Shown here piece by piece: positions 5,334 to 52,240 of a DNA stretch of 64,000 bases (the stretch's first letter is position 1; each line of letters opens with the position of its first letter). The position numbers were made by a program, and so were the translations under genes. Source of the DNA: a virus (Duplodnaviria > Caudoviricetes); the IMG/VR virus record IMGVR_UViG_3300017569_000030, positions 1 through 64,000 of that record, one strand, 5' to 3'. The notes under the pieces were generated by a model. That model saw nothing but the letters and a program-made list of their open reading frames with translations, ran no database searches and was not told the DNA's origin.

Positions 5334-5474
5334 ATTATTTTAATTTAAAGTGTTATTGTCAGACTATTTACATAGTTTCGTCTAAGTCTCATCAGTGATA
5401 ATTTTAACGACTCCTTAGCTGTCGAATATGACTTACATAAAAAGTTAGGTGTGGGATTTCTCCCACACAACTAA

Positions 5475-9116: not shown

Positions 9117-9138
9117 AAATTACATAAGTTAATATTTG

Positions 9139-9227
9139 TAGCCCATGTAGGAATCGAACCCACCCCGCCGTCCTCAGAAGACAATACAGATTTAGAGTCT
9201 GTCCGTGCAACCATACACCAATGGGCT
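9139..9227 (-). tRNA. Amber suppressor tRNA (anticodon CUA) with long variable arm
   Basis: AGCCCAT/ATGGGCT acceptor, GTGT-ATGGTT-GCAC D arm, ACAGA-CTCTAAA-TCTGT anticodon arm, variable stem TTGTCTT-CTG-AGGACGG, GTGGG-TTCGATT-CCTAC T arm, A73; 89 nt. Confidence 0.92.
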
Positions 9228-19689: not shown

Positions 19690-22123
19690 TTGAAAAAACG
19701 GATAAAGCCATCAATGAACTAGTCTATGCAAAATATGATTTGCAGAAAGCATATAACTATTATAATGGTATAAGAGATGCAGACTAGTTCAGATACCTTG
19801 AAGAGGTGTATGGTGCAAATACTCCTACCACTCTTCACTTTACTCCTTTAATTAAAAAACATATTGACGCTTTAATTGGAGAATATCTTGGAACTCCAAT
19901 TATTCCAAAGATATTCTGCAAGGACAGTGAAACAATAAATAATATAGATAGAGAGAAGCAACTTAAAATCGCTTCTGAGTTACATACTTATTTAAAAGGT
20001 CATTTAAAAAATTCTATTCTCAATTTTCTTGATGGTAAAAATATAAATGATGGATTGGTTGAATAGCAACTTTCAAGAATAGTTTAGGATATTAATAACA
20101 CTTTTGAATCTGAGTATGAAATTGCTGCACAAAATGTTGTAGAATATATTATGCAGTCAAGAGATACTGATATAATGAATGTATTACGTGATTTATTATT
20201 AGACTTGTTAATTACTGGTTATGCTTTTTATCGAGTGAAACCAACAGTTGAGAATGATAATATTAAAATTCAAGCTCTTAATCCATTAAATACATTCATA
20301 GATCGAAACTTTGATTCTCCTTATGTTAAAAATTCATATCGCGCAGTAGTTCGTAATTGGATGACTAAAAATCAAATTTTAAATGAATACGGTAAGGAGA
20401 TGAACAGAGATGATAGAAAGCTACTTGATGAAAAATGGGATTCTGTATATGAAAATGCCATGTATTATGTTAGACTTGGTGAAACTAATGGTGTCCCTGT
20501 TACTGATGGATTACAAGGAGGCATTGAAGTAACTCCAGGTTATCCAGATAGTAAATCTGGTTTATTGCATGAATTAATACCTGTTTATGAGGTTGAATGG
20601 CTTGAAACAGATAAAGATTTTATCATGTAGCGATATAAAACAATACGAATTGGCGAAGAAATATATCTATTAAGAGGTAAAGATGAGAAAGTAATGCGTA
20701 GTAAATCAAATCCATCTTATTGTGGTTTATCTATTAATGGCATTTACTTTCTTAATCGAGGTGTTAAACCATATTCAATGGTTTTAGCTTGTGCACACCT
20801 CCAGGATTGATTATACTAGTTCTGGTTAAATTTCGAGAATTGCTGGAAACCCCTGAGAGTCTTGAATACTTTAAGTAATAATTTCAAGAATTGGGAAATC
20901 AGCAGCTGAGCTTCTAAAAGAAGAGAGTTCAACGACTAAATGTAGGATCAAGTGATCTGAAGTACGAAAATATTAATTTAATATATGATATAGTCTCAAC
21001 ATCTGATGAAAATCAGAGCAGCAGCGAATCGCAAGATTCTAATGCGGACGTAAAATAACGAATTACGTCGAAGAAAATGTAGTATGACCTCTTAAATTTC
21101 TATCGTGATAATTTAATTGCTAACAGCGGAACAATAGGTGATTGGATTGATTACACTCTTATACCTGCTGAATTAGGTGTTAATTTACCAGAGAGATTAG
21201 TTAAATGGTAGGCTTTAAAGAAGCAAGGAATTGGTGTTTTGGATTCTTCTCAAGAGGGAAGATTAGCTTCTGGACAAGCCCCTCTTAATACTATCTTTAA
21301 TGGTTTCGATAACACCGTTAAAACACAGGCAGTACAAGCAATTCAATTAGCTATTGACGCGATAGAACAAACTTGTTCTTCTATTACTGGTGTATTTAGA
21401 GAAAGATTAAATGGAATAGAACAAAGAGATGCAGTAACAAACATTAAGATTGGATAGAATAATTCATTTATTATTACTAAACAATATTATCACTAGATGG
21501 ATTTAATAGTCAATGAAATGTTACTTGATTGTCTTAATTTAGCGAAAGTTGTTTACAAAAATGGATTGACTGGAACTATTATTTTAGGTGATAAATATTA
21601 GAAAGTATTTACTGCACTACCAGAATATTTCACTTTAACCGATCATGATATACGAATTTTAACTAGTACAGATGTCGTAAAGGATCTAGAACAGTTAAAA
21701 ACAATTATTCCTGAATTTGTTAAATCTGGAGGATTACCGCCAGATATTATTATAGAAGCTATAACTAGTAAGAGTATCCCAGATCTTAAATATAAGGTTA
21801 AAAAAGCTATGCAAGTTTAGAAAGATGAAGCAAACCAAGTTCAACAATTAACTCAATAGAATTAGGAGCTTCAAAGTTAGCTTAAATAGTTAAATACTGA
21901 ACTACAGAAAGCATAGAAGAAAATAGAAACTCTTAACTAGAACAAATTAGAATTAGAACAACAAGAAATGTAGACTAAATACCAAATTGAATGGTATAAA
22001 GCACAAACAGATAGAACATATAAAGAAGCTACTAATGAGGAATAGAAAAGAAGAACTCAAGTTGAACTTATGTAGCTTTCAGATGGAAATCCTTATAATG
22101 ATAAAATAAGATAGATTGACTAA
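19671..22123 (+). CDS. Portal protein, exons 19671-20807 and 21080-22123 (code 15, 726 aa)
   Basis: YNYYNG..DQFRYLEE, LHFTPLIKKHIDALIGE; spliced junction HLQD|QYDLLNFYRDNLIANSGT; follows terL. Confidence 0.88.
20808..21079 (+). mobile_element. Group I intron in portal (272 nt, no ORF)
   Basis: P1 CCAGGAU/GUUCUGG with U-G splice pair; P10 ATACTA/TAGTAT; AATTGCTGGAA, AATCAGCAG, TTCAACGACTA, ATATAGTCT; terminal G. Confidence 0.9.
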
Positions 22124-44171: not shown

Positions 44172-47100
44172 ATGTTAGTTGCAAATTTTACAAGTAGAAT
44201 ACCTACTATGGGTCTGCTGTAAGTTTGGCCCCTGTTAATAGTGATATTAATATGCAAACTCTGTGAATTGCTGGGATTCCTTCAAATATTTGGAAAATCA
44301 GCAGTTTTATCTTTGTGAAAAGGTAAAATTCAACGACTAATGTATAACACGAGCACAGAGGTTCTAATTTAGTTAGAATATGATATAGTCTGAGCTTACA
44401 TGATGATAAAATGTAAGAATTGTTAGATAAAGAGCTAACAAGGTAACAAAATTTGCAAACTAAAACATACGAGGATTGGTCAAAGTACCTGGGCAGTAAG
44501 CCCCACCGTCTTGGTGTAGTAGCTCGTATGTACACTGATAATACTTTGAACTTTATTACAGATGGTCTTAGGAACGTCTATTACAAGGATGAGAAAGCAG
44601 ATCAATTCTAGCTTTCTAGTTCTTTATTGTTTGAGTGGAATGTAGAAACAAATAATATCAAACACATAGAGTTCGCTGAAGTACCAGCTGAAACTGGAGA
44701 AAACGGAAATGAAATAACGATGGCGTTCAAAGAGAACTATTATCAGAAGTATGACATCTTTAGAATTGATAAGACGAAGCAACAGTGTCAAGTTGTTAGC
44801 CGTCCAATTCGCAAGCGTGATGATTACTGGGAAGTACAAGTTCGTTTGATTGATAATAACTTTGATACGATCCTTGATACAGATGGATGCCAGATTGGTG
44901 ATACTACAACGTTCCAATCTGTTGCAGTACCCGAATTGAACGAGGAAGGTTTAAATTTAAGATAGCTTTCCTCCGTTAAGTTAGTTGCTTAATGAAAAAT
45001 TAAATAAATATTTCTAATTGCTGGAATGCTAAGTTCTTATTGAATATGCCAATCAGCAGCAAAGCCTTAGAAAATATAAGCTCAAAGAGAAATACTAAGG
45101 AATGTTCAACGACTAGTCTAGATAGACGTAGGGGAAATCAACCCCGAAATGGAATAAATCTAAAATTTAAATACAATGAAATATATAGTATATCAAACGA
45201 CCAATAAGGTCAATGGAAAAATTTATATTGGAGTACATAAAACCGAGACTCCGGATGATTTCGATGGATATTTAGGAAATGGAATCTATATTTATCGACC
45301 TTCTAGTTATATGCATCCAAAAACGTATTTTCAGTATGCTGTAAAGAAATATGGTATTAAAAACTTTATTCGTACTACAATTAAGGTTTTTGATATAGAA
45401 GCAGATGCTTATAAAATGGAAGCAGACTTGGTAAATGATGAATTTATACAAAGAGATGATACTTATAACTTAATTTTGGGAGGCAAAGATGTATCTCAAT
45501 TTATGGTTAAAGTTTATATGTATGATCTTAATGGAAATTATGAAATGGAGTTTGAAAGCTTAATTGCTGCAGCAAAATATTTGAATCCTAACGCAAAAGG
45601 AGGAGGACATTTACCTAGAGCAATAAAGCATAGGCATCAATTTCTTGGGCATCAATTTTCGTATGAAAAGGTTGATAATATAGGACCTATAAAAGCCATG
45701 AAAAATCGAACTCATGTTGAAAAACCTTATACAGGAGGGAAAGTAGGAAGATTCGATAAAGAAGGAAACCTATTAGAAACGTTTGAAACAATGACTGACT
45801 GCGTTAAAGCAGGATATAAAAATGCAAAGTTAGTTGCATTAGGAAAAAGAAATATATGTAAAGGATTTGTATTTAAATATTTAGATTAAGATATAGTCTG
45901 AACAGTATAGAAACATACTGATTAACAATAATTGTATTCAAAATTCCAATCTCAGATGGAGTTGCATTAGATATTAATTACGGTGCAACTTCGAGTTCGC
46001 TCAAAATAAACTCCTTTAATTGCTGGGATCTCTCTATGAGACAATCAGCAGCGAAGATTCTACAATAGAATAACGTTCAACGACTATCGAAAGTATAGGT
46101 TAAATACCGAATAAACGAGTAGAGTACACTTATCATAAGTGGAAACAGGGAGCACCTTTATAAGGTGAAGATATAGTCTAAACTTATATGTGAATATAAG
46201 AATAATTACGTAATTTCATGACAACATTCCGTTGCGATGCTAGTTGGTCTAGCTTATATGCAATTCAAGAGAATGTATTTATGAGTATCTGTGATGATAA
46301 GGATAAAACAAAGACCGAAGGCGTATATAAAATGCTCAAGAAGGAAAAAGAATTACTCGATACCTTCATGTACGCCATGAATACAGGGTGGAAGTAAGCT
46401 AGCCCTGATTAAATTCTTCTAATTGCTGGAAACCTCAAAAGGCAATCAGCAGCAAAGATTTAAAAACTAGTGACAAACAGTTTTAAATAATGTTCAACGA
46501 CTATCCGTGATAGGATAAGTAAAATTTTACTGAAATGGAGAATAATTTTAAATATATAGTATATCAAACAATAAATATTAATAATAATAAGATTTATGTG
46601 GGGGTGCATAAAACAAAAGATCCTTCTATATTCGATGGATATATAGGAAATGGTGTAAATATCTATCATCCAAGTACTTATGTAAAGCCAAAATATCCTT
46701 TTCAATATGCTGTAAAAAAGTATGGGACATCAAGTTTCAGAAGATCGGTGTTATATATTTTTGATAATGATAAAATGGCATATAACAAGGAGGCAGAAAT
46801 AGTAAACGAAGAGTTTATTAAACGCTCTGATACATATAATGTAATTTTAAGTGGAAAAATACATCCTACTTATTATATTCGATCTTGTATATATCAATTT
46901 GATTTACAAGGTAATTTAGTAAAAAAATGGAATGATATTTATGATGTTTCTGAATTTTTATGTACTTGGAAAGAATCAGTATATTCAGCAATTAGACACA
47001 AATCTCGATTGTATAATTTTTATTGGAGTTATTCTGATAGTATTAATCTTTCTGAATACTCTAGTCCAAATGAATCTAGGAAAGTTTATCAATATAATAA

Positions 47101-50100
47101 GGATGGAAAGTGTATAGCAATTTATAATACTATTGGAGAAGCTGCTAGATATAATAATGTTCAACCAGGACATATAATAACTTATATTAAAGCAGGAACC
47201 TTTTCTAAAGGAGAATATTTCTATTCTTATGAACTATATGATGAGTATGTTTCAAAACCTAGATTAGATTTAAAAGGAAAGACATTATATTTATATGATT
47301 TGGATGGAAATTTTATTAAATCGGAATTTATAGTAGATTTTAAACGAGAATTTGATATTCATACATATAAAGAAATTTCTAATATAATTCTAAATAAATC
47401 TAGCTTAAAAGGATTTCAAATTAGATTAGAATATACTGAAACAATAGAGAAATATTCTCCAAAAAATAAGAAACGTGCCGTAGAAGTTTATACTATTGAC
47501 GGTTCTTTAGTTGGTGAATTTGAAAGTGTTACTCTTGCTTGCAAAACTCTTAAACTTGATTCATCTACTGTATCTAAAATATTAAGAGGAGTAGCAAAAA
47601 CAACCAAAGGATATACTATAAAATATAAAAATTAAAGATATAGTCTAAACAATATAGAAATATATTGATTAATATATATTGTATGCTTTAACAAAGGCAA
47701 TATAGATGTGAATTAACTTACGGTTCACAATAAACTCCTTTAATTGCTGGGACCTCTTACAGTGTAAGACAATCAGCAGCGAAGATTCTACAATAGAATA
47801 ACGTTCAACGACTATCGAAAACATAGCATTTATTGCAAAGAAGTGAGTAGAGTACATTAAAAATAATGGAAACAGGGAGCATCTCTAAATAAGAGATGAT
47901 GATATAGTCTAAACTATATAGTAATATATAGCTAATATATTGGGTAAACCAACAATCACAGATCCTAAACTCCTGTGTTGGGATCTTGCAGCGTGAGCTG
48001 TATAACAAATAACTCCTTGAATTGCATGAAACTCCTAAATTGTTAGGACAACCTGCAGCTAAGCCTTTTATAGGAAAGTTCAACGACTATCGAAAGCGTA
48101 GGTATAAATACTGAGTAAGTGAGTAGAGTAGAGAGTAAAATCTCGAAGTGGGGAGCGTCTCTAAACAAGAGATGATGATATAGTCTAACCTATATAGTAA
48201 TATATAGTTAATATATGGACACAGGTCGCGGTATTTATATAGGTGAGGGTAGAGTATCTGCCCCTTAGTATCGTAAGATACTTCGATCAGCTGCTTAATT
48301 CGGTGAACCCTGAGATGGGAATACCGAGCCAAGTAAGATAATAAAATTATCTGGGCGTGTGTAACGACTATGATATATTATAAATTAAAATTTTCATCAA
48401 TAATTAATAATTATTAGTATGCAAAAAAGAAAAAAATCACTGTTAATTAGCTTAGTATTAGGTGATGGACATATTGCTAAATCTGGAAAGGGTAATTGCT
48501 TGCAAATTACTCATAGTATTAAACAAAAAGAATATTTTGAATGGAAACGCCAATTAATTGCAGATCTTTTAGATTGTAATTTACCTGGAGTTTATCATAG
48601 AGAGGATTCAAGACATAACGAATTTTCTCTTAATAAAAGTCATAGATATTTTCGTATCATTAGAAAATGGTTATATAAAAATGGTATTAAGCGATTTAAT
48701 AAAAAAATATTAGATTATATTACCGCAGAGGGATTGGCTATCTGGTTTATGGATGATGGTAGTCATTGTGTAAATCGCAGAAAATCTACAGGAAAGGTAA
48801 TGAGTCATACTTTTAAATTATATACATTTACTAATGAGGAAGACACAGATAATATTATTCAAATGTTTAAAGAAAAATTTGGCATTAATGTTTATAAATT
48901 AAAATATATAAAAAAGGACGGTTCTCTTAGTTATTATTTACAATGGAAAACAAGAGAAGGTAGAAAGTTTTGTAATTTAATTCGTCCTTATGTTATCCCG
49001 TCAATGCAATATAAATTATTGCAACCAGGAGAATAATATATCTTTAACAGCAGCCAACCAGAAATGGTTGAAGATATAGTCTAAACAAATACAAATTAAA
49101 GTATTTGATTAACAAAATTGTTGATACCTCAAATAGAAGCCGCATGTAACAAATATTGTTACAATAATAAACCAACATTACCTCTGTTTAACCAGATTAT
49201 GAACGATATGGCTGACAAAGCCCAGTCTGATACTGGTGGGCACTGGGTGTTTATAGTAAACCGCAAATTATGGAATGATGTGAACACAGTTCTTGGTGAG
49301 TATCTCGCTAATTATAGAACTGATGGTACTTATATGTATTCCAAGTCTGCAAACAAAGGTATGGGTGGTTATGTCAAGGTCGGAGCAACCTTCGACACAT
49401 ATATTTACGCCGGTGAATTGATTGCCGCATAAATTAAAAATAATTTATGAAAATTTATTTAATTGCTGGAACATCTTGAAGTTTAATAAGCTATAAAGGA
49501 ATTAGTAATAATAAACTTGAAAGCTCAAAAATTATTAAATATAAGACAATCAGCAGCGAAGCTTCTAAACTACTAAAGCATGAAGAACGTTCAACGATCA
49601 TCCCTTTGGGAGTAGATTAATATATTAATCGAAATAATAAACATCTTATGGAATTAAAAAATATAGTTTATATAACAGTTAACTTATGTAATAGTAAATT
49701 TTACTTTGGGGTTCACAGAACTAATCCAGAAGTTTTTGACGGATATATTGGTGCAGGAATCTACAGACAATCAAATGCCACATTAGATACTGCCTTTCAT
49801 AAAGCTGTGCGAAAATATGGTTATGATAATTTTAAAAGAACTATAATTGCTATTTTTCCAGATACAGAAGAAGGAAGAGAGTAGGCTTTTAATTTAGAAG
49901 CAAGTATAGTAACTAAAACTTTGATTAAAAGTAAAAATTGTTATAATTCTGCTTTAGGAGGGCAGGGAAGTACAAATATAGATACAAAACGTGTTTATAT
50001 GTTTAATTTGAAAGGAAATTTTTTAAGAAGTTTTTCTAGTATTAGAGAAGCAGCAAACTTTATTGATTCTACAAATGAATATAATGTTTTAAAAGCTATT

Positions 50101-52240
50101 AGAAATAATTGTTTGGGAAAAAATAGTAACAGCAGTTATGGTTATTTTTGGAGTTATAAGAAAAAATTTGAAAATAATAATCATTGTAATAGAAAAGTAG
50201 CACAATACACAATTTCTGGAAAATTTCTTAGATATTATGATAGTATGACTGAAGCAGAACAAGAGCTTCAAATAAGTACAATATATCAAGCTATTATTAA
50301 AAAATTTACTTCTGGAGGATTTCAATGGAGATATTATGATGGTGATACATCTGATATATCGACTTTGATTTCTAGGAAAAATAAAAATTTAGTATTACCT
50401 ATTAAAATGTTTTCTAAAGATGGAACATTTATAAAAGAGTATAACTGTGTAAACGATTGTGTAAAAGAAAATCCAAATTTATCTGCCAGTTAGATAAATA
50501 GAGTTTTAACCAAAATAATTAAATCTCATAAAGGTTTTACTTTTACATACAAAGATGAAGATATGATCTAGTCTATTTAGAAATAAATAGTATATCGAAT
50601 GAAATTTCGTTTGTGGTAGATAGAGCATTAACTCGTGAATATCCAGATAAGGGTTATGGAGTATGCATCGATCTTACCGCAGATAAAACATCTGGAACTC
50701 CTGCTGTTGCAAAATTCAGTATCACTGGAAAAGATTTCATGACCAACAAACTTATAGGCGTAGGCGGGTATGATGGAAAAAGTTCTGGTGAAGTTGCAAG
50801 CAATGTAGCAGGTTCTAAGCTAATAATGATGGGCTTAAAAATATTTATTTGACAGCGTAGGTCCATCAATAAAAAATTCTTTTAAGTGCTGGAAAGTAGC
50901 ATAACTGATATTAACTTGTTAAGTTTTAATAATAATATTAGTGCTATAATCAGCAGCCAAGATGTATTTGTAATTCCTTTAGGAATTAATACACAAGGTT
51001 CAACGACTAGGCGCAAGCCATAGATTAATTTATTAAAATTAAATCGAAATGGAGAATAATCAAATCAAATATATTGTATATTGTACTACCTGTACAATTA
51101 ATAAATTCATTTATATTGGTTATCATAAAACCAAAAATCCAGATATTTTTGATGGATATATAGGAAATGGAATTTATATAAATAATCCAAGTACCTATAA
51201 TAATCCTAAACAAAAATTTCAATATGCTGTAAAGAAATATGGTCCTTCTAATTTTATAAGAAGTACAATTGCCGTATTTAATACCGAAGAAGAAGCGTTA
51301 GATTTAGAAGCGGAAATAGTAAATGAAGAATTTCTTAAACGGTCTGATGTATATAACGTGGCATTAGGAGGTTTAGGAGGGAATTGGATAATAACAGCAC
51401 ATAAAACTTATCAATATGATTCTGAAGGAAACTTTTTAAATGAATATGTATCTATTAAAGATGCTTCTATGAAAATTAACCGATCTTTCAGAAGTTTATG
51501 GAGGGCTATTAATGATAAATGTAAGTGTGGAGGATTTTTTTGGACAGAAACGAAATTTGATAAATTAGATTTATCAAAAATGAAATTATATGAAGGATTA
51601 CACACGATACCTACTTTTCAATATGATAATTTGGGAAATTATGAATGTTGTTATGATTCAATTTCTGATGCTGGAAGAATATTAAATATTCATTCAGCAA
51701 ATATTTCTAGAGCAATTAAATTAGGAGAAATATGTAAAAATAAGTATTTTACAAATATCTATGCTCCTAACTATAGCATTTCAAAAGATAGACAAATTAA
51801 ATCCTTTGAAATACACCAATATGATTTAGCAGGTAAATATATTACCTCATATAAAAATATGCAAGAAGCTAAAAATAAATTAAAAATTAAGGCAAATATT
51901 TATACTGCTATTAAATTGGGGCAAACGTGTGGAGGTTATCAATGGAATTTTGAAAAGTTGCCTCAAATGCCTCCTGTTAAATCTAAATCTGGAAAAGCTC
52001 GAAGAGTTGGTAAATTTGATAAAAATAATAATCTTGTGGAAGAATATAAGTCCTTAGCAGAGTGCAAAAGAATTAATGGAGCTTCAGTAGAACACGTTAT
52101 TAGGGGTAGAAATGAATTTTCTAAGGGGTACAAATATAAATATTTAGATGATTAAAGATATAGTCTGAAATTTAGTCAATTTTGACGCTGGTGTAGCGGC
52201 TTTCACTCCTTATAGGTCAGTAATTGTCCGTGAGGCTTAA
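44172..52240 (+). CDS. Major capsid protein, 10 exons: 44172-44213, 44456-44950, 45935-45967, 46209-46389, 47682-47713, 47943-47966, 48218-48250, 49121-49414, 50598-50835, 52185-52240 (475 aa)
   Basis: Spliced product is one frame: MLVANF..PTMG|QTKTYED..PELNEEG|YSKFQSQMELH|RNFM..NTG|LCFNKGNIDVN|GKPTITDP|DTGRGIYIGEG|LIPQIE..YAG|NEISF..MMG|YAGVAAFTPYRSVIVREA*; one TAG at 44609. Confidence 0.9.
44214..44455 (+). mobile_element. MCP group I intron 1 (242 nt, no ORF)
   Basis: P1 GGGU/GCCC; P10 AGTTTG/CAAACT; AATCAGCAG, CAACGACTA, ATATAGTCT; terminal G. Confidence 0.9.
44951..45934 (+). mobile_element. MCP group I intron 2 (with HEG)
   Basis: P1 GAGGAAGGU/GCUUUCCUC; core motifs; terminal G. Confidence 0.9.
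45176..45889 (+). CDS. Intron-encoded GIY-YIG endonuclease with NUMOD1-like repeats
   Basis: YIVYQTTNKVNGKIYIGVH..YLGNG; stop overlaps the P7 3' strand. Confidence 0.9.
   Translation: MKYIVYQTTNKVNGKIYIGVHKTETPDDFDGYLGNGIYIYRPSSYMHPKTYFQYAVKKYGIKNFIRTTIKVFDIEADAYKMEADLVNDEFIQRDDTYNLILGGKDVSQFMVKVYMYDLNGNYEMEFESLIAAAKYLNPNAKGGGHLPRAIKHRHQFLGHQFSYEKVDNIGPIKAMKNRTHVEKPYTGGKVGRFDKEGNLLETFETMTDCVKAGYKNAKLVALGKRNICKGFVFKYLD
45968..46208 (+). mobile_element. MCP group I intron 3 (241 nt, no ORF; apparent terminal A)
   Basis: P1 AGUUGCAU/GUGCAACU; P10 AATTACG/CGTAATT; frame and P10 put the 3' end at A46208. Confidence 0.8.
46390..47681 (+). mobile_element. MCP group I intron 4 (with HEG)
   Basis: P1 CAGGGU/GCCCUG; core motifs; terminal G. 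Confidence 0.9.
46535..47635 (+). CDS. Intron-encoded GIY-YIG endonuclease
   Basis: YIVYQTININNNKIYVGVH..YIGNG; NUMOD1-like repeats. Confidence 0.9.
   Translation: MENNFKYIVYQTININNNKIYVGVHKTKDPSIFDGYIGNGVNIYHPSTYVKPKYPFQYAVKKYGTSSFRRSVLYIFDNDKMAYNKEAEIVNEEFIKRSDTYNVILSGKIHPTYYIRSCIYQFDLQGNLVKKWNDIYDVSEFLCTWKESVYSAIRHKSRLYNFYWSYSDSINLSEYSSPNESRKVYQYNKDGKCIAIYNTIGEAARYNNVQPGHIITYIKAGTFSKGEYFYSYELYDEYVSKPRLDLKGKTLYLYDLDGNFIKSEFIVDFKREFDIHTYKEISNIILNKSSLKGFQIRLEYTETIEKYSPKNKKRAVEVYTIDGSLVGEFESVTLACKTLKLDSSTVSKILRGVAKTTKGYTIKYKN
47714..47942 (+). mobile_element. MCP group I intron 5 (229 nt, no ORF)
   Basis: P1 GUGAAU/GUUCAC; core motifs; terminal G. Confidence 0.9.
47967..48217 (+). mobile_element. 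MCP group I intron 6 (251 nt, no ORF)
   Basis: P1 GAUCCU/GGGAUC; P10 GTGTT/GACAC; terminal G. Confidence 0.9.
48251..49120 (+). mobile_element. MCP group I intron 7 (different core, with LAGLIDADG HEG)
   Basis: P1 GGGU/GCCC; AATTCGGTGAA..AATACCGAG..TGTAACGACTA; terminal G. Confidence 0.88.
48419..49036 (+). CDS. Intron-encoded LAGLIDADG endonuclease
   Basis: LISLVLGDGHI and LAIWFMDDGS. Confidence 0.9.
   Translation: MQKRKKSLLISLVLGDGHIAKSGKGNCLQITHSIKQKEYFEWKRQLIADLLDCNLPGVYHREDSRHNEFSLNKSHRYFRIIRKWLYKNGIKRFNKKILDYITAEGLAIWFMDDGSHCVNRRKSTGKVMSHTFKLYTFTNEEDTDNIIQMFKEKFGINVYKLKYIKKDGSLSYYLQWKTREGRKFCNLIRPYVIPSMQYKLLQPGE
49415..50597 (+). mobile_element. MCP group I intron 8 (with HEG)
   Basis: P1 CGGU/GCCG; core motifs; terminal G before AAT GAA ATT. 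Confidence 0.88.
49648..50586 (+). CDS. Intron-encoded GIY-YIG endonuclease, itself TAG-recoded
   Basis: IVYITVNLCNSKFYFGVH..YIGAG; in-frame TAG at 49882 and 50491. Confidence 0.85.
50836..52184 (+). mobile_element. MCP group I intron 9 (with HEG)
   Basis: P1 AUGGGCU/GGUCCAU; P10 CAGCGT/ACGCTG; terminal G. Confidence 0.9.
51049..52155 (+). CDS. Intron-encoded GIY-YIG endonuclease
   Basis: YIVYCTTCTINKFIYIGYH..YIGNG; NUMOD1-like repeats. Confidence 0.9.
   Translation: MENNQIKYIVYCTTCTINKFIYIGYHKTKNPDIFDGYIGNGIYINNPSTYNNPKQKFQYAVKKYGPSNFIRSTIAVFNTEEEALDLEAEIVNEEFLKRSDVYNVALGGLGGNWIITAHKTYQYDSEGNFLNEYVSIKDASMKINRSFRSLWRAINDKCKCGGFFWTETKFDKLDLSKMKLYEGLHTIPTFQYDNLGNYECCYDSISDAGRILNIHSANISRAIKLGEICKNKYFTNIYAPNYSISKDRQIKSFEIHQYDLAGKYITSYKNMQEAKNKLKIKANIYTAIKLGQTCGGYQWNFEKLPQMPPVKSKSGKARRVGKFDKNNNLVEEYKSLAECKRINGASVEHVIRGRNEFSKGYKYKYLDD

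Follow-up and report, generated by a model that had tools for sequence, protein, structure and literature searches.

Group I introns are taught to end universally in guanosine, the terminal residue (omega-G) occupying in the second splicing step the same pocket as the guanosine cofactor. The only published natural exception that we found is in the mitochondria of hexacorals, where the very large ND5-717 group I intron of sea anemones and mushroom corals ends in adenosine (omega-A; PMC8146996; PMC6545197). The sea-anemone ND5-717 intron yields ligated mRNA, and its authors suggest that the A prevents hydrolysis at the 3' site and the formation of circles (PMC8146996). Here we describe an intron with the same terminal base in a phage genome. 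It is intron 3 of the major capsid gene (45968-46208, plus strand) in a window of 64,000 nt, by which we mean the whole stretch of DNA analysed (positions 1 to 64,000 of IMG/VR record IMGVR_UViG_3300017569_000030). The intron ends in A46208 and not in omega-G, and this is the only boundary that restores an invariant His-Arg of the capsid protein. A first-pass annotation of the window had named anthozoan mitochondria as the precedent for an omega-A intron, and ND5-717 is indeed documented as one (PMC8146996).

Intron 3 and ND5-717 are both natural group I introns with A as the last base, each interrupting a protein gene that is essential, and no guanosine-pocket switch has been described for ND5-717. 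The two differ in most other respects. ND5-717 is obligatory and vertically inherited, holds whole genes in P8 and works in an organelle where host factors are likely, whereas intron 3 is a compact 241-nt phage intron in a recently transferred mobile block and is known from DNA sequence alone. Its P8 of 6 bp with a 3-nt loop, its absence from nearly all relatives and its position in the transferred block place it outside the ND5-717 lineage; it is an analogue of that intron and not a member of its lineage.

The core of intron 3 is like that of the phage subgroup IA introns (td, nrdB and sunY of T4; orf142 of Twort), in which P, Q, R and S elements are accompanied by P7.1/P7.2, a U-G pair marks the 5' site and P9.0/P10 mark the 3' site. 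Such introns interrupt genes that the phage cannot do without, and are frequently associated with GIY-YIG homing endonucleases. All described phage IA introns, to our knowledge, end in G, in place of which intron 3 has its terminal A. An A at omega has also been engineered into the Tetrahymena intron (G414A), where ligation with the terminal A reportedly needs an A-U pocket, as made by the switch G264A:C311U. Intron 3 is like G414A at omega; unlike in the pocket switch, its binding pair is still G-C (G46082-C46178). For the phage itself, the closest description is that of the Zeta/Delta crAss-like phages, with capsid genes split by several group I introns, late genes recoded at TAG, and a suppressor tRNA (Yutin et al. 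2021, PMC7886860). In the intron passages of that paper, to which our comparison is confined, the introns were found via endonuclease domains with ribozyme boundaries left unmapped, the example capsid gene is in five pieces as against ten for the window gene, and a terminal A is not reported.

The exons of the window gene were mapped by aligning the intronless capsid protein of a relative, L003 (475 aa, ~90% identical), to the window and reading the junctions in the DNA. The gene, the single major capsid gene of the phage and essential to it, consists of ten exons and nine introns, and together the exons make up a continuous 1428-nt reading frame (475 codons) in which TAG occurs once. Exon 3 (45935-45967) is 33 nt long, encodes YSKFQSQMELH, aligns with L003 residues 180-190 and ends in U45967, while exon 4 (46209-46389) starts with CGT, the codon of the invariant Arg. 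Joining 45967 to 46209 produces MELH/RNFM across CAT/CGT. The intronless relatives have exactly 33 nt between the equivalents of exon 2 and exon 4, and at this point read E-R/K/L-H-R-N-F-M/I-T-T-F-R or H-R-G-Y-I-T (overall H/F-R-N/G). Of 77 loci, 76 encode Arg at the start of exon 4, the lone exception being misaligned. The H/RNFM frame given by the first-pass annotation is therefore upheld, both by the 475-codon joined frame and by the conserved Arg.

Three positional cues, namely P1, P10 and the UU ahead of the last base, all place A46208 at omega. The 5' site had been fixed from P1 after CAT(45967), and we recover it as the wobble pair U45967-G45983 that closes a 10-bp P1 (exon strand 45958-45967 with guide strand 45983-45992). 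The perfect 7-bp P10 that had also been reported is present in full: AATTACG (45976-45982) pairs with CGTAATT of exon 4 (46209-46215) at 7/7 positions and directly abuts P1. By our own estimate, the chance of such a P10 in AT-rich sequence is ~1e-4. The two guide strands form one gapless internal guide (45976-45992), and as P1 and P10 are contiguous at 45982/45983, U45967 is brought beside C46209. Their combined length (10-11 + 7 bp) makes this the longest guide pairing among the nine capsid-gene introns. The 3' tail AATAATTA (46201-46208) contains TAA at 46202-46204, the P9.0 UU at 46206-46207 and the terminal A, and intron 2 ends in AATAATTG (45927-45934; omega-G), both endings reading as in the first-pass annotation. 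Around the 3' splice site, the junction lies one base off the centre of a 12-nt palindrome (AATTAC/GTAATT, 46204-46215), and the tail followed by CG duplicates the P10 guide strand AATTACG. The TAATTA of the tail may also pair with the P1 loop (45975-45980), a possible competing structure.

The stretch 46201-46209 is free of G, and the flanking guanosines are G46200 and G46210. A ribozyme ending at one of these real Gs would keep the omega-G rule, at the price of a capsid protein without the Arg, with H-Y-N-F, or with an insertion; G46210 is only 2 nt downstream, and model ribozymes with a mutated terminal G use nearby cryptic G sites. We nevertheless consider such a junction highly improbable. 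With G46210 as last base, U45967 is joined to U46211 and a stop follows at once (CAT TAA). To stay in frame, the 5' exon would have to end in A45966 (45966 joined to 46211, Arg deleted) or in A45969 (45969 joined to 46211, H-Y-N-F, Arg replaced); neither A can form the U-G pair, and the residue lost or replaced is the one kept in nearly all relatives. The TAA at 46202-46204 shares the capsid reading frame; an earlier 3' site is thereby blocked, and G46200 as last base leaves a stop in the message. The abutment of P10 and P1 at 45982/45983 matches 45967 joined to 46209. Two further boundaries were rejected. A junction of 45966 with 46208 encodes L-Q-R-N-F, lacks the U-G pair and leaves U as the last intron base, and one of 45968 with 46210 encodes H-C-N-F, with C as the last intron base. 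Owing to differences between the bases around the two splice sites, no joint shift of the boundary yields an identical mRNA. No boundary ending in G restores the conserved protein, and the omega-A reading of the first-pass annotation stands as the sole one that restores His-Arg, backed by P1, P10 and the UU.

A scripted junction survey of 83 related contigs, in which all boundary pairs keeping the reference length were scanned and the joined protein was scored, served as a control; it is rough, the reference diverging from many loci. Among its 41 junctions, only those of intron 3 in the window and in one relative, L083, were genuinely without a U/G solution at or near the top score. L076 was flagged as a second T/A case as a result of its length difference to the reference, and by hand it is a normal U/omega-G junction (GGGGCT/...AACG/CAGAC). 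The micro-exon between introns 5 and 6 of the window was flagged as well; it had been missed by tblastn and was mapped by hand.

Its covariance-model match and predicted fold identify intron 3 as a true group I intron, of an IA-like subgroup with putative P7.1/P7.2. It matches Rfam RF00028 at 45966-46200 with 85.4 bits (gathering score 50; E 2.5e-20) over the full model length, and has no open reading frame (ORF). P1-P6a, P7.2, P8 and P9 were taken from the minimum-energy fold, and P7, a pseudoknot, was placed by R/S homology. The fold yields P2 (45993-45995 with 46000-46002), P3 (46011-46016 with 46147-46152), P4 (46021-46026 with 46045-46050), P5 (46029-46032 with 46038-46041), P6 and P6a, P8 (46153-46158 with 46162-46167) and a 7-bp P9 hairpin with a GTGA loop (46183-46200), whose G46200 is the final G ahead of the exon. 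Hairpins at 46087-46118 and 46127-46141 occupy the P7.1/P7.2 position in the fold of this one sequence. The 5' strand of P7 (46080-46086) lies in the R element GTTCAACGACTA and the 3' strand, TAGTCT (46174-46179), in the S element GATATAGTCT. By homology, the pairing is 46082-46086 with 46174-46178, with G46082 as the guanosine-binding G, C46178 as its partner and C46081 bulged; for this assignment we take C262-A263-G264 of Tetrahymena to be the appropriate R/S reference. J7/9 (AAA, 46180-46182) would, under the IA-intron model, probably pair with U46206-U46207 as P9.0, the customary layout for this helix.

The other eight introns of the gene provide an internal control. Each has U at -1 and a terminal G, which is preceded by UU in seven of the eight and by AU in intron 6, and those with a recognised S element have an A-rich J7/9. 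The first-pass annotation had described the P7 strands of intron 3 as the same as in the other introns, and its R and S elements are in fact identical to those of introns 1, 2, 4, 5, 6 and 9. A compensating A-U pocket was sought in the R and S elements of intron 3 and is absent, the binding pair remaining G-C. Its R and S elements being unchanged, intron 3 is not a pocket-switched ribozyme, and the engineered A-U route to splicing with adenosine is inapplicable to it. Intron 5 is a close sibling (81% identity, with an identical stretch over P5-P7), and the tail of intron 3 resembles that of intron 2. The simplest history for the terminal A would be one G-to-A transition at the last base.

Other assemblies carry this A as well. 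A scan of IMG/VR with a pattern of the tail plus exon recovered AATAATTA followed by CGTAATT in L083, a 6.5-kb contig from sample 3300029966. Exact-protein look-up added L114/L116 (sample 3300029968; a 53-kb contig, 100% identical over 3-4 kb) and L115 (sample 3300029967; 99.7% identical), which have the A too. The terminal A thus occurs in four assemblies, at least three samples and two distinct phages, and all copies of the orthologous intron, whose comparison the first-pass annotation had proposed, end in A. That annotation had also left room for a sequencing error. An error of sequencing or assembly at this position, or an origin of the contigs in defective phages, would explain the base away, and raw reads give no view of A46208, the source record being incomplete as well (81 kb, ~49% complete). 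Against this stand the recurrence of the A across separate assemblies, one of them a distinct phage, and capsid genes that in both the window and L083 are otherwise intact frames. An error as the source of A46208 is now very unlikely, and artefact or dead genome is the least probable of the explanations that we weighed.

L083 is the distinct phage. Its genes 3' of the capsid gene are 80.8% identical to those of the window over 2806 nt, and the remaining part of exon 4 (46240-46389) has 21 differences in 150 nt (~86% identity), as compared with only 7 differences in 1298 nt (99.5%) over 44942-46239, 2 of them in intron 3. The highly similar block, which matches L083 on its reverse strand, takes in introns 2 and 3 with exon 3 between them, flanked by the last part of exon 2 and by 31 nt from the start of exon 4. 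The break in identity is sharp, and the tract ends right after the exon strand of the intron 3 P10. A 99.5% block that gives way to divergent sequence indicates that L083 is a different phage with a recent homing or co-conversion event. Its capsid gene keeps an intact frame from exon 3 to the stop and encodes a protein ~87% identical to that of the window. There is no intron at sites 5, 6 and 7, short endonuclease-free introns occupy sites 4 and 9, and one intron is at a new site; these introns all have U at -1 and a terminal G.

Further searches added no other copy at this site. A blastn search of GenBank phages returned only intron-core matches (jumbo phages of Pseudomonas, Vibrio, Bacillus and others) and no ortholog at the site, and a scan of metagenome contigs for a pattern combining the 3' tail with the exon yielded nothing but four unrelated chance hits. 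The pattern of P9 plus J7/9 found L083 alone in IMG/VR. Among the 19 loci retrieved from IMG/VR with the exon 4 protein, none but L083 has an intron at the His/Arg site. The exact ligated junction has 0 matches in IMG/VR, which indicates that this database holds no intronless allele with these flanks.

The mobility of the block probably stems from intron 2 (44951-45934, 984 nt, mapped against L003). Its ORF (45176-45889) matches NUMOD1 as the only domain, GIY-YIG being the type assigned by the first-pass annotation. Intron 3, which encodes no endonuclease, is separated from this endonuclease-bearing intron by 33 nt. It was found only alongside intron 2 and in 2 of ~100 related contigs; orthologs of intron 2 occupy the same site in L007, L008, L010, L014 and L109 without intron 3. 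Given the missing endonuclease gene, the distance of 33 nt and the occurrence of intron 2 on its own, intron 3 most likely spreads as a passenger of intron 2 homing, by co-conversion.

Homing drive of this kind could carry a mildly harmful allele, and the main rival explanation for the terminal A builds on it. The A would be damaging, greatly lowering ligation and capsid yield, and would persist through co-conversion driven by intron 2 while the phage lives on a trickle of correct mRNA. The unchanged guanosine-binding pair fits this account, as do the transfer of intron 2, exon 3 and intron 3 as a unit (99.5% identity vs ~86% in the adjoining exon), the one-sided association with intron 2 and the rarity of intron 3. 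However, the phage requires capsid protein in great quantity, and a costly A would quickly revert by one base, yet two lineages that have accumulated 7 differences in the block both retain it. We regard strong impairment as unlikely; it differs only in degree from the explanation that we favour.

That explanation, to which we assign a probability of roughly three in four on the predicted structure and the comparative evidence, is that intron 3 is a phage IA-type group I intron with a terminal A, that its 3' site is set by pairing and that it is exactly spliced. The first step would be ordinary, with free guanosine in the unchanged G46082-C46178 site attacking after U45967. In the second step, pairing, and not the identity of the last base, would define the 3' site: P9.0 (U46206-U46207 with J7/9) and the 7-bp P10 stacked on P1 would hold the bond between A46208 and C46209 in the active site. 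The terminal A would occupy a pocket built for G, so that binding energy and register would come mainly from P9.0 and P10. In model ribozymes, these two elements make binding of the 3' splice-site guanosine much tighter (PMC2588497). Exon 3 would be joined to exon 4 as CAT/CGT, giving the conserved His-Arg, and the exact product at this junction would be GAGTTGCAT joined to CGTAATTTC. The second step probably proceeds less rapidly than its counterpart in the sister introns, or with protein assistance, and would be sufficient for a viable phage.

Splicing, the speed at which it runs and the functions ascribed to P9.0 and P10 are inferred from these lines of evidence together. Exact removal is suggested by the capsid gene being single and essential, by the retention of the A in two lineages although a one-base change would restore G without touching the protein, and by the stop that results from mis-splicing at either neighbouring G.

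Several observations weigh against this explanation. The guanosine-binding pair carries no compensating change, and in Tetrahymena a terminal G-to-A change is said to nearly abolish exon ligation unless the pocket is A-U. A long P10 is not special to intron 3, as intron 6 combines an 8-bp P10 with a normal terminal G. The intron is known in only two lineages, and no G-ending copy at the site was found. Samples 3300029966-68 are consecutively numbered and probably belong to one study, so the assemblies are separate and their independence is limited. Finally, 24 candidate sequencing runs were considered, each with only 4% of the sampled words, and the reads of four public runs (two of them metatranscriptomes) leave the ligated junction uncovered, splicing being deduced from the genome; these reads cover only conserved cores of other phages' introns, with depth 0 over 45947-45988 and from 46220.

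The remaining exons and introns of the capsid gene, all on the plus strand, are exon 1 (44172-44213), intron 1 (44214-44455), exon 2 (44456-44950), intron 4 (46390-47681), exon 5 (47682-47713), intron 5 (47714-47942), exon 6 (47943-47966), intron 6 (47967-48217), exon 7 (48218-48250), intron 7 (48251-49120), exon 8 (49121-49414), intron 8 (49415-50597), exon 9 (50598-50835), intron 9 (50836-52184) and exon 10 (52185-52240). Introns 1, 3, 5 and 6 score above the gathering score of Rfam RF00028, with introns 2 and 4 slightly under it. Micro-exons of 32, 24 and 33 nt lie between introns 4 and 7 (47682-48250); the 24-nt exon 6 (GKPTITDP), which escaped tblastn, sits between two introns without ORFs (5 and 6). 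The sets of capsid-gene introns vary from phage to phage (L083, L010, L014, L077, L022-L073), with ~20 insertion sites in total. The site near residue 415 has an intron in 13 contigs, in forms of 940 nt and ~1380 nt. In L112 (IMGVR_UViG_3300035501_000083), the exon 3/exon 4 region looks rearranged or deleted, and the frame is lost just past the His-Arg codons.

The source of the window is an 81-kb IMG/VR phage record, an incomplete metagenomic contig, and its relatives are gut phage contigs of 117-190 kb. For the intronless relative L003, the Pfam match of the capsid protein is Crass_capsid (PF23898; E 4e-14). An in-frame TAG in capsid exon 2 (44609-44611) aligns with Gln in L003, L009 and L013, TAGs in relatives align with Gln in the window, and ARAGORN predicts a 90-nt tRNA with anticodon CTA ('tRNA-Pyl') at 9138-9227 on the minus strand. 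TAG is decoded as an amino acid in this phage, with Gln the most likely one. The CTA tRNA falls below the gathering score of the Rfam tRNA model and may be divergent or have a long arm or an intron. The phage fits the intron-rich, stop-codon-recoded Zeta/Delta crAss-like phages as they are portrayed in the intron passages of PMC7886860. Its host probably belongs to the Bacteroidota. Outside the capsid gene, a RAGATH-1 hammerhead ribozyme match (RF03152) lies at 5357-5425 on the minus strand (67.4 bits vs a gathering score of 56.3), and 20897-20938 has a weak blastn match to the intron 3 core (80% over ~40 nt) that may be another group I intron.

The exception to the terminal guanosine described here is a small, ORF-less intron with an unchanged G pocket, and the phage capsid gene in which it sits is single and essential. 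Close sisters that end in G are part of the same transcript and provide built-in controls, making it testable what share of 3' splice-site choice and exon ligation is carried by P9.0 and P10 alone. For annotation, the exons of this capsid gene would be wrongly joined under any boundary rule that requires G as the last intron base. The locus would also illustrate how an endonuclease-free intron can spread by co-conversion with its neighbour. More tentatively, and with the odds clearly against it on present evidence, a terminal A may be tolerated or even selected in compact phage introns, the last base not being strictly required when P9.0 and a long P10 continuing P1 fix the 3' site. If so, the A might block 3'-site hydrolysis and the formation of full-length circles, as has been proposed for ND5-717 (PMC8146996), might prevent exon skipping by the ribozyme of neighbouring intron 2, or might make maturation of the capsid mRNA depend on a phage or host factor. 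It could in that case benefit a gene that contains nine tandem introns and micro-exons, and the 241-nt intron, with G-ending sisters in the same gene, would be a natural model for omega-independent exon ligation.

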